A stretch of DNA of 27,944 bases. Source: Candidatus Bathyarchaeia archaeon (lineage in GTDB: Archaea; Thermoproteota; Bathyarchaeia; Bathyarchaeales; Bathycorpusculaceae). Of the stretch, positions 20,593-27,944 are shown piece by piece. Numbering within the stretch: the stretch's first letter is position 1; every line of letters begins with the position of its first letter. The position numbers were made by a program, and so were the translations under genes. The notes under the pieces are model-generated. The model was not told where the DNA came from, ran no database searches, and saw only the letters and a program-made list of their open reading frames with translations. The stretch is taken from assembly GCA_049969855.1 (NCBI GenBank), contig JBMFOB010000018.1:1-27944 (forward strand), given 5' to 3'.

Positions 20593-20691
20593 TGGCGGGC
20601 CCGCCGGGAATTGAACCCGGGACCCCCGGGTTTCTTCTTTTGGGCTTTTGTTTAAAAGCCCGGTGCTCTATCCTTACTGAGCTACGGGCCC
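20593..20691 (-). tRNA. tRNA-Lys(TTT) with 21-nt canonical 37/38 intron (20632-20652) and encoded CCA
   Basis: GGGCCCG/CGGGCCC acceptor, G73, CCGGG-CTTTTA|A-CCCGG anticodon arm, CCGGG-TTCAATT-CCCGG T arm. Central helix CTTT/GAAG with AA|A bulge. Confidence 0.93.
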
Positions 20692-25227: not shown

Positions 25228-27681
25228 TTAATATTCGCTTACGAAGCTTATTTCGGGAAATTCTCGAATTTGTCTACCATCACCTTTCTCAGATAAAATT
25301 TCAAGTTGTAAGATTTTGCATGTTCCAGCAATGTCTTCCTTGTTTTCGCTGATTATTTGTGCAAACTCGCTCTTTCCAGCGTATATTTTAACCCGTTTAA
25401 TAGGCGAGTTCAAGGGTTTTCTCTTCTCAGCCTTTTCGCGTCTGATCTCAGTTATCAAGGCTATCACTAAGTCGCCTTTCCGCTCAGCTTCCTCATTCAC
25501 AATTTCCATTTTTACTTCTGGCCAAGGAGTTATTTGTAGGCTTTTTTGTCCTATAGCTTCTGCGTATATTGTTTGGTAAATTTCCTCTGTTATGTGAGGC
25601 GTTATAGGCGCCAGCAGCTGAATTATGCGATACAAAACATTGTAAAGAGTGAATTGGACAGCTTTCTTTTTTTGTTCTCCGTAAATTTCTGGTTTGTAAA
25701 GTCTGTCCTTCACAGCTTCGATGTATTCGTCGCAGAAAATATGCCACGTAAAATTGCGAACTTCTTCAAGGACTATGTTAAATTGGCAGTTCTCTAACGC
25801 TTCTGTAACTCTTTGCGTAACTTTCTCAAGTTTGCTCAGAATCCATTTGTCTAAAAGTTGCAAGTCGCCCTTCTCTTCTGGTTTATAGTCTCTTATTTGG
25901 GTGCCAGTGAATCGTGCCGCATTCCAAAGCTTAGTCAAGAAGCGCCTTCCATAATCCACGTCAGACCAGCGAAATGGAACATCCGAACCAGTTGCTCCAC
26001 CGCCAGCTGCCCACTGTCTCGTTGCATCTGCGCCATATTTTGAAAAAACTTCTAAGGAAGGCACATAATTGCCTAAAGACTTGTGCATCATCCGCCCGTC
26101 TGTGCCCAAAACCATGCCATTAATTAGACAACTCTTGTATGGTTTCTCATCGAACAAAGCAAGATGTCTAACCATTAAGTAGTAGGCCCATGTGCGGATA
26201 ATGTCAACGCCGGATGGATGCATATCAGCTGGGAAAAGCCTACGCCAGTCCTTCTTGTCTGGCCAGCCGGCGTGAACCGCGCATGTTATTGAGGAATCAA
26301 ACCATGTGTCTAAAACGTCTCTTTCAGGCTTGAATTTGTTTGAGCCGCATTTTGGGCATTTTGTAATTTTTGGGTTTTCTATTTTCGGGTCTATTGGTAG
26401 CCATTCTGGTTCTGCTAGAATTGTTTCGCCGCAGTTTTGGCAGTACCATATTGGTATTGGCGTTGCAAAGACCCTTTGGCGGGATATCACCCAGTCCCAG
26501 TCAAGGGATTTTGCCCAGTTTATTAGGCGATATTTCATGTAGTCTGGGTACCACTTAACTTCTAAAGCGTTCTTTTCCAGTTTGTCCGTTAGAATGCGGG
26601 TTTTCATGAACCATTGTTCTCTTTCAAGAATCTCTATTGGAGTGTGGCATCTCCAGCAAACGCCAACTTCCTGCGTAAGCGTTTCAGTCTTTTCTAATAG
26701 CCCATCATTTTTCAAATCTTCGATTATGGCTTTCTTAGCCTCTTCAATGGTTAGTCCAGCATATTTTCCAGCATTCTCCGTCATTCTGCCTTTCTCGTCT
26801 ATGCACATTATGACTGGCAAATTATGTTTTACAACACTTTTTACGTCTGCCTTGTCTCCGTAAGTGCATATCATCACTACGCCTGTTCCGAATTCTGGTT
26901 CAACAAGTTCGTCTGTTATTATTTCAACTGTCCTGTTTGTTGTTGGTACATGAATCTTTTTGCCAATATATTGTTTGTAGCGTTCGTCGTGGGGGTTTAC
27001 GGCAACTGTTACGCATGCTGGAATCAGTTCCGGTCTTGTTGTGGCTATTGTTAGGAAACCGCCGTCATCCATTTTAAACCTAATATAATGTAAGGTGGCG
27101 GTTCTCGTTTCATATTCCACTTCAGCATCTGCTATGGCTGTTTCGCATCTCGGACACCAGTTCACTGGATGCGTTCCACGGTAAATGAAACCTTTCCTAT
27201 ATAACAGAACAAAGGAGAGTTGGGTGCGCCTCCAATAGTCCGGGTCCATAGTCTTATATTCGGTTGTCCAGTCTATTGAGCATCCAAGCCTATTGATGGC
27301 TTCCTTCATAAGTCCTATATATTTTTCCACATGTTCTTCGCAAAGTTTTCTAAACTTGTCTGGCGGAATGTCTGTCTTCTTGATTTTGTGTTTCTTTTCA
27401 ACTTCCACTTCTGTTGGCAAGCCGTGGCAGTCCCATCCTTGGGGAAAATGAACATTGTATCCTCTCATGCGTTTGTAGCGGGCTACTATGTCAAAATATG
27501 TCCAATTTAACACTAAACCCATGTGAAATTCGCCAGAAGGATAAGGTGGAGGAGTGTCAATGCTAAAGGTTGGGCGCTTTTTGTCCTTCCAGTCGAAACG
27601 GTAAACACCCATCTCCTCCCACTTTTCTTGCCATTTCCTCTCAATTTCGATTGGATTGAATTCTTTAGGCAAAGACTTCAC
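25228..27681 (-). CDS. valS: Valine--tRNA ligase (archaeal type)
   Basis: IDTPPPYPSG, GWDCHGLP, WCPRCETAIADAEV, ATTRPE, FGTGVVMICTYGD, DWVISRQR, DVLDTWFDS, MHKSLGN. Confidence 0.95.
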   Translation of the reverse strand: MKSLPKEFNPIEIERKWQEKWEEMGVYRFDWKDKKRPTFSIDTPPPYPSGEFHMGLVLNWTYFDIVARYKRMRGYNVHFPQGWDCHGLPTEVEVEKKHKIKKTDIPPDKFRKLCEEHVEKYIGLMKEAINRLGCSIDWTTEYKTMDPDYWRRTQLSFVLLYRKGFIYRGTHPVNWCPRCETAIADAEVEYETRTATLHYIRFKMDDGGFLTIATTRPELIPACVTVAVNPHDERYKQYIGKKIHVPTTNRTVEIITDELVEPEFGTGVVMICTYGDKADVKSVVKHNLPVIMCIDEKGRMTENAGKYAGLTIEEAKKAIIEDLKNDGLLEKTETLTQEVGVCWRCHTPIEILEREQWFMKTRILTDKLEKNALEVKWYPDYMKYRLINWAKSLDWDWVISRQRVFATPIPIWYCQNCGETILAEPEWLPIDPKIENPKITKCPKCGSNKFKPERDVLDTWFDSSITCAVHAGWPDKKDWRRLFPADMHPSGVDIIRTWAYYLMVRHLALFDEKPYKSCLINGMVLGTDGRMMHKSLGNYVPSLEVFSKYGADATRQWAAGGGATGSDVPFRWSDVDYGRRFLTKLWNAARFTGTQIRDYKPEEKGDLQLLDKWILSKLEKVTQRVTEALENCQFNIVLEEVRNFTWHIFCDEYIEAVKDRLYKPEIYGEQKKKAVQFTLYNVLYRIIQLLAPITPHITEEIYQTIYAEAIGQKSLQITPWPEVKMEIVNEEAERKGDLVIALITEIRREKAEKRKPLNSPIKRVKIYAGKSEFAQIISENKEDIAGTCKILQLEILSEKGDGRQIREFPEISFVSEY

Positions 27682-27712
27682 GTTCCAACATCCCAGTAGC
27701 CATTAACTTTAG

Positions 27713-27726
27713 GAAAGATAAATATA
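27713..27726 (+). promoter_or_regulatory. BRE/TATA-like element (GAAAG-ATAAATATA) for the riboswitch transcript, possibly shared with divergent valS
   Basis: About 25-30 nt upstream of the aptamer 5' end. Confidence 0.5.
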
Positions 27727-27753
27727 CGAGTAAATAACAATTACCCCACCCAA

Positions 27754-27850
27754 GGTTTGAGGGAGCTGGGTTATGACCCGGCTGAGAGGACGGCTGAAAG
27801 TCGTCGACCCCTAGAACCTGACCCAGATAATACTGGCGGAGGAAAGAACC
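27754..27850 (+). ncRNA. TPP (THI-box) riboswitch aptamer
   Basis: P1 GGTTT/GAACC; P2 AGGG/CCCT; P3 GCTGGGT-TATG-ACCCGGC; invariant CTGAGA; extra hairpin GACGGC-TGAAA-GTCGTC; ACCTGA; P5 CCAG-ATAATA-CTGG; CG-G-AGG closing P4. Confidence 0.9.
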
Positions 27851-27944
27851 GTGGAACAAAATAAGAGTATTTCAAAAGCTCCGGAAACAAAGATATTCGC
27901 TGAAATGATAGTTTTCATCGCTCTTGCAGAGGCTCTGTACATTG
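27851..27944 (+). CDS. 5' part of a probable thiamine transporter (ThiT-like ECF S component), truncated by window end
   Basis: GTG start 8 nt after GGAGG. MEQNKSISKAPETKIFAEMIVFIALAEALYI resembles the T+..aE...f.AL...L first helix of ECF S components, and lies directly downstream of a TPP aptamer. Confidence 0.6.
   Translation, partial: MEQNKSISKAPETKIFAEMIVFIALAEALYI

Follow-up and report, generated by a model that had tools for sequence, protein, structure and literature searches.

The stretch of DNA analyzed here (the window) is a complete contig of 27,944 bases from an archaeon of the Candidatus Bathyarchaeia, which ends on the plus strand with a thiamine pyrophosphate (TPP) riboswitch aptamer and the 5′ end of thiT, the gene for the S-component of an energy-coupled thiamine transporter. 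The riboswitch probably represses the translation of thiT directly and without an expression platform: as far as the sequence tells, the only plausible ribosome-binding site of thiT is the GGAGG inside conserved aptamer nucleotides. A platform-less translational OFF switch had been proposed in an earlier note on this DNA and is supported by the comparison with relatives, namely by the complementarity to the 16S rRNA tail, the 8-nt spacing, the conserved arrangement and the interchanging start codons. The leader has the following features:

27711..27726, plus strand: putative archaeal promoter with an AGGAAA (27711-27716) resembling the transcription factor B recognition element (BRE) and a TATA-like ATAAATATA (27718-27726); from the sequence, TTTAGGAAAAATAAATATAC being the majority consensus of alignment A2
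27749..27862, plus strand: TPP riboswitch aptamer; hit to Rfam RF00059 at 61.6 bits (gathering score 54.3)
27750..27752, plus strand: possible extension of helix P1, CCA with UGG 27852-27854 (U and G of the start codon and the next base); minimum-free-energy fold at 37, 60 and 75 °C and duplex prediction
27754..27758, plus strand: 5′ strand of P1, GGUUU, pairing with GAACC 27846-27850; Rfam alignment
27759..27811, plus strand: pyrimidine-sensor arm with P2, P3, CUGAGA and P3a; Rfam alignment
27759-27762 with 27808-27811, plus strand: P2, containing an A27760-C27810 mismatch; Rfam alignment
27765-27782, plus strand: P3 hairpin; Rfam alignment
27789-27805, plus strand: P3a hairpin; Rfam alignment
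27817..27842, plus strand: pyrophosphate-sensor arm with P4, P5 and J5/4; Rfam alignment
27823-27836, plus strand: P5 hairpin; Rfam alignment
27837-27838, plus strand: J5/4, consisting of C27837 and G27838; Rfam alignment
27838..27842, plus strand: Shine-Dalgarno (SD) motif GGAGG inside J5/4 and the 3′ strand of P4; from the sequence, complementary to the organism's own 16S rRNA 3′ end
27843..27850, plus strand: 8-nt spacer AAAGAACC, the last five bases of which, GAACC (27846-27850), are the 3′ strand of P1; sequence and Rfam alignment
27851..27943, plus strand: 5′ end of thiT with a GTG start, 31 codons up to the contig end; listing of open reading frames (ORFs) and identity to relatives
27905..27907, plus strand: in-frame ATG (Met19), not the start codon; alignment A1

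The aptamer and its embedded Shine-Dalgarno motif

The match to RF00059 was full length (model positions 1-105, E 5e-10) and the sole TPP match in the assembly of 1.28 Mb. In the Rfam alignment, G27754-U27758 formed the five pairs of P1 with G27846-C27850. The 3′ strand of P4 comprised G27839-G27842, of which A27840, G27841 and G27842 paired with U27819, C27818 and C27817; the fourth position was a mismatch, with G27839 opposite G27820. The leader was compared in alignment A2 with a set of 51 non-identical Bathyarchaeia leaders, composed of the loci of relatives and of named Bathyarchaeia records after three duplicates and one aptamer-less locus had been dropped. The columns of the core motifs CTGAGA (27782-27787), ACCTGA (27816-27821) and CGGAGG (27837-27842) were invariant in 51 of 51 leaders. 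Standard pairs filled 87.8 % of the cells, and the covariation score was 0.181 compared to 0.116 in shuffles, both observed values being reached by none of 500 shuffles; on sliding the 3′ partners the pairing fell to 33-57 %. Paired cells amounted to 90.7 % in P2, 99.2 % each in P3 and P3a and 87.7 % in P4/P5, with compensatory changes on both sides of P3a in 10-11 sequences and of P5 in 12 (AU to GC), while the P4 pairs CCU/AGG were unchanged in all 51. TPP is the predicted ligand of the aptamer.

Two positions set the window apart from its relatives. In P2, A27760 produces the A-C mismatch where relatives have G, and the window alone reads GGAGGA, with GGAGGG present in 48 of the 51 leaders; a near-identical DNA contig in run X1 has G at 27843. 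Because of the differences at A27760 and A27843 the Rfam score was lower than the 72-78 bits of same-genus relatives.

The earlier note had placed GGAGG 27838-27842 on the J5/4-P4 strand, with AGG paired to CCU, and the start codon directly behind P1. The Rfam alignment bore out both statements: AGG pairs with CCU 27817-27819, and GTG 27851 begins right after the 3′ end of P1 (27850), 8 nt past GGAGG. Likewise, no terminator or U-tract was present between aptamer and start codon, as the note had stated. The distance from P1 to the start codon is 0 nt, therefore neither a hairpin nor a U-tract can fit, and a pattern scan of 27600-27944 returned 0 terminator-like sites.

The 3′ end of the 16S rRNA, located at the start of contig C7, reads ...GGAUCACCUCCU, and its tail CCUCCU is complementary to GGAGG. 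The genomic use of the motif was recorded by measuring, for each GGAGG in the genome, the distance to a start codon opening an ORF of 100 codons or more. A peak was seen at spacers of 7, 8 and 9 nt (32, 29 and 35); the counts were mostly 10-18 at spacers of 3-6 and 10-12 nt, and rose to 19-28 at a spacer of 2 nt and at in-ORF positions beyond 12 nt. The control motif CCTCC yielded 9, 11 and 6 at spacers of 7-9 nt and 2-19 across the range. For GGTGA a genome-wide peak was found at spacers of 4-6 nt (45, 38 and 47). The 8-nt spacer of thiT lies within the genome's own SD peak of 7-9 nt.

The contig ends within thiT, and the remainder of the gene was searched for in the assembly and not found. 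The 31 residues encoded in the window were identical (31/31) to the N-terminus of the ThiT of L045, a protein of 182 amino acids with a GTG start, and 90 % identical to the N-terminus of the 182-amino-acid protein of L009 from a genome of the same genus. Both proteins exceeded the cut-off of TIGR02357 (108.45) with 134.3 bits for L009 and 133.1 bits for L045, and L009 matched PF09515 with an E of 1.5e-43. At the position of the start codon L009 has ATG, the window and L045 have GTG. Variants of ThiT with 237-248 amino acids and a mid-protein insertion of approximately 65 residues were seen in L019, L022, L040 and L169.

Conservation in Bathyarchaeia and a bacterial control

TPP matches were obtained in 41 of the 61 genomes of relatives, the window's own included, and in 32 of the 36 genomes of the window's family, mostly one in each. 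An alignment of homologous leaders had been suggested in the earlier note as a check, and it came out in favor of the arrangement. GGAGG was present in 49 of the 51 leaders and GUAGG in the other two; in 42, here called direct leaders, the start codon of a long ORF followed the motif after 6-12 nt, in 37 after 7-9 nt. The individual spacers were 6 nt (two leaders), 7 nt (10), 8 nt (19), 9 nt (8), 11 nt (2) and 12 nt (1), and they were rich in A (221 of 340 bases). ATG served as start codon in 24 of the direct leaders, GTG in 13 and TTG in five. Judged by this comparison, it is the fixed distance from motif to start codon that goes beyond chance, not GGAGG itself. The gene behind the direct leaders was mostly thiT, besides three CytX-like permeases, one ParA/MinD-like ATPase and one other S-component of the energy-coupling factor (ECF) type. 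The nine non-direct leaders were L014, which has ACG, L031 and seven leaders of thiC or cytX; in these seven the main start codon was located 76-87 nt downstream and preceded by its own UUUUGGAGG.

L014 (identical to L048) and L027 carry ACG where relatives have ATG, GTG or TTG, and the frame is open (182 codons for the thiT of L014). The ACG may be a near-cognate start codon, a recent mutation or a sequencing error. The ATPase gene at L021:1604-2341 has a direct leader with TTG 9 nt after GGAGG and encodes a P-loop protein of 246 amino acids of the ParA/MinD-like type with a match to PF13614. The protein is weakly similar to models of the ApbC/Mrp Fe-S carriers and, as the cargo of a TPP riboswitch, is unusual.

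Across the class, 93 of 151 sampled Bathyarchaeia genomes, the window's own included, had TPP matches. Among 69 further loci of this sample, the direct design was observed in 30, with a start codon 5-11 nt after AGG and in front of genes for ThiT (23), ThiW (4), other ECF S-components (2) and a DUF2284 protein (1). Two loci had borderline starts at 14 and 17 nt, and 37 had distal starts, with ThiC, ThiD-ThiN, CytX, ThiW, nine ThiT and unknown proteins as cargo. Direct and distal designs, as read from these leaders, are thus both present within the class. The DUF2284 protein is a predicted metal-binding protein (L188:247-951), and the direct TPP leaders of L038, L160 and L179 precede ECF S-components that match the riboflavin-type PF07155, not ThiT or ThiW. 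Many distal platforms have UUCUCAGC at 15-30 nt after the aptamer, e.g., L155, L159, L162, L164, L170, L172, L173, L184 and L190. As complement of the aptamer's conserved GCUGAGA(A), UUCUCAGC is likely the anti-aptamer strand or the SD-sequestor strand of a conventional platform.

The closest non-archaeal relatives of ThiT were found in Lachnospiraceae and other Bacillota (35-47 % identity; L057-L121 versus L044-L056). This similarity raises the question of an inter-domain transfer of thiT together with the aptamer. Twenty-five bacterial thiT leaders with a detectable aptamer served as control. Their ThiT-aligned region began 54-253 nt past the AGG of the aptamer, and an in-frame start codon preceded by an SD was found in 22, located 50-159 nt downstream in 20 of these 22. 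These 20 distal starts sit behind CCUCC...GGAGG hairpins or terminators of hairpin and U-tract; two TTG starts at 26 and 28 nt were judged spurious, being more than 200 nt before the aligned region. In four bacterial leaders (L070, L085, L061 and L105) an ATG or TTG in frame followed the aptamer at 5-10 nt. The ThiT homology of all four begins about 90-240 nt past the aptamer, and these proximal codons were read as chance occurrences. L070 and L085 have an SD-preceded start codon 64-77 nt downstream; in L061 the sole plausible one is at 253 nt, and L105 yielded none. GUAGG was present in 24 of the 25 bacterial leaders.

Proposed mechanism and competing explanations

Archaeal promoters follow a BRE/TATA consensus with a spacing of -26 to the transcript start. 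The BRE/TATA-like block upstream of the aptamer would place the transcript start near A27748 and the aptamer wholly in the 5′ untranslated region; the mRNA would begin roughly 5 nt upstream of P1. At low TPP, the P4 of three base pairs and the weak, A/U-rich P1 would breathe. With P4 open, the 16S tail (CCUCC) could pair with GGAGG and the transporter would be made. TPP would bridge both sensor arms and lock P4/P5, and P1 too where it is present. In the TPP-bound state the SD would be paired or buried in the ligand pocket and the start codon pinned at the helix end or partly inside it; binding of the 30S subunit would be blocked, with ligand and ribosome competing for the same nucleotides. The occlusion of the ribosome and the OFF logic are both predicted from the leader sequence.

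Several results weigh against direct translational repression. The GGAGG differs by one base from CG-N-AGGGA, an aptamer motif that is conserved universally; the aptamer consensus nearly forces GGAGG, and its presence alone is no proof of a role as SD. In the class-level sample the G that completes GGAGG occurred in 22 of 30 direct leaders and also in 18 of 37 indirect ones. A selection of this G for SD function was rejected as an argument on account of those 18 indirect archaeal leaders. The G costs a fourth P4 pair (G-G mismatch in 49 of 51 leaders) and was rare in bacterial thiT leaders (1 of 25). Exceptions within the family are L014, where ACG takes the place of the start codon, and L031, whose TTG lies 37 nt downstream and has no SD. 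RNA runs were searched and none contained the locus; two labelled metatranscriptomic covered the conserved parts of relatives only.

A further objection concerns P1. A P1 of 4-6 A/U-rich base pairs directly adjoins the start codon in the window and its closest genera, and the start codon abuts or overlaps P1 in 24 of the 34 leaders in which the helix finder detected this helix. With strict settings the helix finder found no P1 in 15 of the 51 leaders, and the P1 columns were merely 50-68 % paired in the MAFFT alignment. The duplex predictor often chose non-homologous pairings, and P1 was assessed instead on Rfam alignments, which covered ten diverse direct leaders of relatives besides the window. 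Among these 11, four had 0-1 mismatches and seven had mismatches at 2-5 of the five positions, with all five mismatched in two leaders. P1 was thus unpairable at its Rfam position in 7 of 11 direct leaders, and occlusion by P1 is therefore not the general mechanism. The earlier note had named P4 and P1 together as occluding elements; the P4 part held, with CCU/AGG invariant in 51 of 51, and the P1 part proved lineage-specific, with abutment limited to close relatives. On this comparison the general occluding element would be the P4 strand and not P1, because what stays invariant is the SD within P4 together with the short, A-rich spacer. Predicted duplexes of the 5′ and 3′ flanks were weaker in the direct leaders (means of -4.1 and -2.9 kcal/mol) than in the class-level indirect leaders (-5.7 kcal/mol).

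The predicted folds were sensitive to the length of the RNA. The minimum-free-energy fold of 27748-27870 was the aptamer fold with the three-pair outward extension of P1. When 40 nt of coding sequence were added, the prediction at 37 and 60 °C switched to an alternative, another point against the proposed repression, in which the 5′ strand of P1 pairs with GAACCU 27814-27819 and GGAGG with CUCCG 27879-27883; the latter pairing was not conserved in L009. For the duplex of the P1 5′ strand with GAACCU the family means were -5.65 kcal/mol in direct and -6.36 kcal/mol in indirect leaders, with shuffles at about -3.7 kcal/mol. The class means were -4.50 and -3.62 kcal/mol, with -3.8 and -3.6 kcal/mol in the shuffles. 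An alternative helix of the ligand-free RNA between the P1 5′ strand and GAACCU, which would free SD and start codon, is suggestive at most in these energy models.

Translational control might also operate without GGAGG as SD, with initiation through an unstructured A-rich region and an open start codon over which TPP closes P1. The strong A-richness of the spacers, the start codons that abut or overlap a detectable P1 and the predicted P1 extension covering U and G of GUG would fit such a mechanism, and the abstract of PMC8241225 reports non-SD initiation on leadered haloarchaeal mRNAs. This is nevertheless improbable, as the spacing between SD and start codon stays at 6-9 nt in the seven direct leaders with an unpairable P1, and the genome has a clear SD spacing peak together with a 16S tail containing CCUCC. 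A main output at the RNA level, through premature termination, polarity or decay, with the translational block secondary or absent, has likewise a small chance only. It draws on the long downstream platforms in 37 of the 69 class-level leaders and on some thiC leaders in which a hairpin is followed by a T-run. In archaea, the loss of translation can trigger termination, which also counts for an output at this level. Against it stand the P1-start distance of 0 nt, the lack of a terminator-like site in 27600-27944 and the absence of any T run of five or more within the 94 coding bases of thiT.

The two remaining explanations leave the aptamer or its GGAGG without function in thiT expression. A transcription start inside or after the aptamer, giving a leaderless or short-leader thiT mRNA that escapes control, is very unlikely. 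The L5 loop region AGATAATAC (27826-27834), about 22-26 nt upstream of GTG, is rich in A and T, and a sigma-70 scan flagged TCGACC-16-GATAAT at 27804-27831, which is a bacterial pattern and not meaningful for archaea. L5, however, is a universal feature of the aptamer and lacks a BRE-like run of purines in front of it, the BRE/TATA-like block upstream is kept at a fixed, conserved distance, and selection on the aptamer, whose helices covary, is strongly purifying across genera. Translation from the downstream ATG 27905, which would make the embedded GGAGG irrelevant, can hardly be credited. This codon is in frame and ATG is the commonest start codon, but among the 18 aligned ThiT sequences (A1) Met occurred in its column only in the window and L009. 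Two residues of the motif TKIxAE upstream of Met19, T13 (nearly invariant) and E18 (invariant), would be missing from a protein initiated there. Since Met is not conserved and the TKIxAE residues would be lost, ATG 27905 is not the start; moreover, no SD precedes it and relatives have ATG at the position adjacent to P1. The GTG start, against which the earlier note had held this ATG as a possible refutation, was upheld.

Gene neighborhood and known riboswitches

The assembly consists of 49 contigs with 41 % G+C and is 93 % complete. The records of close relatives are titled Candidatus Bathyarchaeia, and the host is therefore an archaeon. Further features of the window are:

20596-20691, minus strand: tRNA gene interrupted by a 22-nt intron behind the anticodon loop; 59.6 bits with the Rfam tRNA model
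25228..27681, minus strand: valS, valine--tRNA ligase, 817 codons, GTG start at 27681, divergent and upstream of the riboswitch; ORF listing and NCBIfam NF009687 with 1029.8 bits against a cut-off of 738
27731..27745, minus strand: second conserved AT-rich box TAAATAAC (27731-27738) and minus-strand GGTAAT (27740-27745); conservation in A2

Both AT-rich boxes are conserved within the 72 nt between the valS start (27681) and P1 in A2, and the box of TAAATAAC and GGTAAT is probably the promoter of the divergent valS. The gene valS stood back-to-back with the riboswitch in 27 of 42 loci (25228-27862 in the window; loci L003-L042). The intergenic block shared by the two has a conserved part of about 70 nt (TTTAGGAAAAATAAATATACAACTAAATAACAATTACCCC), and the cargo behind the aptamer varies by locus between thiT, cytX and thiC. 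The valS-adjacent promoter and riboswitch look like a fixed cassette with swapped cargo.

A short ORF of 9-26 codons begins 7-13 nt after AGG in L013, L017, L027, L028, L029, L032, L033, L134 and L135. All nine same-family leaders with distal starts (thiC or cytX) keep such an ORF, one of them beginning with ACG; the distal SD in these leaders was located 76-88 nt downstream. In the cytX leaders the stop codon of the short ORF overlaps the main start codon (ATGGTTAA), in L013 and L135 it falls inside the SD of thiC, and in L029, L032 and L033 within a T-run that follows a small hairpin showing compensating changes. As a general trait of indirect leaders, such ORFs had no class-wide support: 16 of 37 had a start codon 4-14 nt after the aptamer, with a rough chance value of about 0.4. 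A portable valS-side cassette of promoter, aptamer, SD and start codon, in front of thiT, cytX or thiC, in which TPP-controlled translation of the leader ORF is relayed to the distal gene, is a rather doubtful idea. The relay could proceed by coupling, where the stop codon overlaps with the start codon of cytX or the SD of thiC, or by termination at the stop-bearing T-run. If the idea is true, a riboswitch and leader-peptide attenuation would be combined in one archaeal system.

The architecture itself has precedents. An excerpt of Barrick and Breaker 2007 (PMC2258182) defines 'direct translation attenuation', citing Rodionov 2002, and counts TPP among the classes in which this design is most frequent. 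The TPP riboswitches of this type, as described in that excerpt, have in common with the thiT leader the aptamer class, the purine-rich 3′ region that is the ribosome-binding site, the lack of a platform and the predicted OFF response; here the host is archaeal, and in one family the arrangement prevails, with 42 of 51 leaders. With regard to the earlier note, the embedded-SD arrangement was confirmed in an archaeon, but, given the excerpt of PMC2258182, it is less novel than the note had implied. Rodionov 2002 may already have noted the embedded-SD arrangement for Thermoplasma. The bacterial thiT riboswitches (L057-L121, and RSthiT of Lactococcus lactis, PMC8862789) share the aptamer class and the transporter family. 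In contrast, their leaders have a separate platform, i.e., a CCUCC...GGAGG sequestor hairpin or a terminator, with starts 50-159 nt away and GUAGG in 24 of 25. In SAM-II and SMK box riboswitches, both bacterial and with other folds and ligands, the SD also lies inside the aptamer. The preQ1 and SAM-I (S-adenosylmethionine) riboswitches named in the excerpt of PMC2258182 likewise sequester the ribosome-binding site by a ligand-stabilized aptamer; they differ in fold and ligand and are bacterial.

Among archaea, TPP riboswitches of Thermoplasmatales have been on record since 2002, as stated in passages of PMC5473149 (McCown 2017) and of bioRxiv 10.1101/538918, which cites Rodionov 2002. In the latter, the archaeal aptamer precedes a putative multi-transmembrane transporter as well, and it was expressed in metatranscriptomes; the Thermoplasmatales belong to another phylum than the Bathyarchaeia, and no mechanism is given in the available part of bioRxiv 10.1101/538918. 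The fluoride riboswitch of Thermococcus kodakarensis (Speed et al. 2018, as cited in an extract of PMC8241225) is also natural, archaeal and presumed to act on translation, with a different aptamer and ligand. The same extract, from a 2021 paper, calls it the only experimentally determined natural archaeal riboswitch. Full-text literature searches on how archaeal TPP riboswitches work, and on riboswitches of Bathyarchaeia, yielded no paper.

The Bathyarchaeia leader is an archaeal example of an already known architecture that is widely conserved in the class. Views on how TPP riboswitches can work are left unchanged and a specialist would not be surprised; what is gained is a clean and widespread test case. 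For the study of gene control by riboswitches in archaea, the thiT leader with its approximately 105 nt is near to the simplest system: one helix strand serves as wall of the ligand pocket and as SD, in a genome with SD-dependent spacing. If the proposed repression is true, a translational riboswitch mechanism of the bacterial type would work on archaeal ribosomes, and the leader would provide a compact thiamine-responsive control part for thermophilic archaea.

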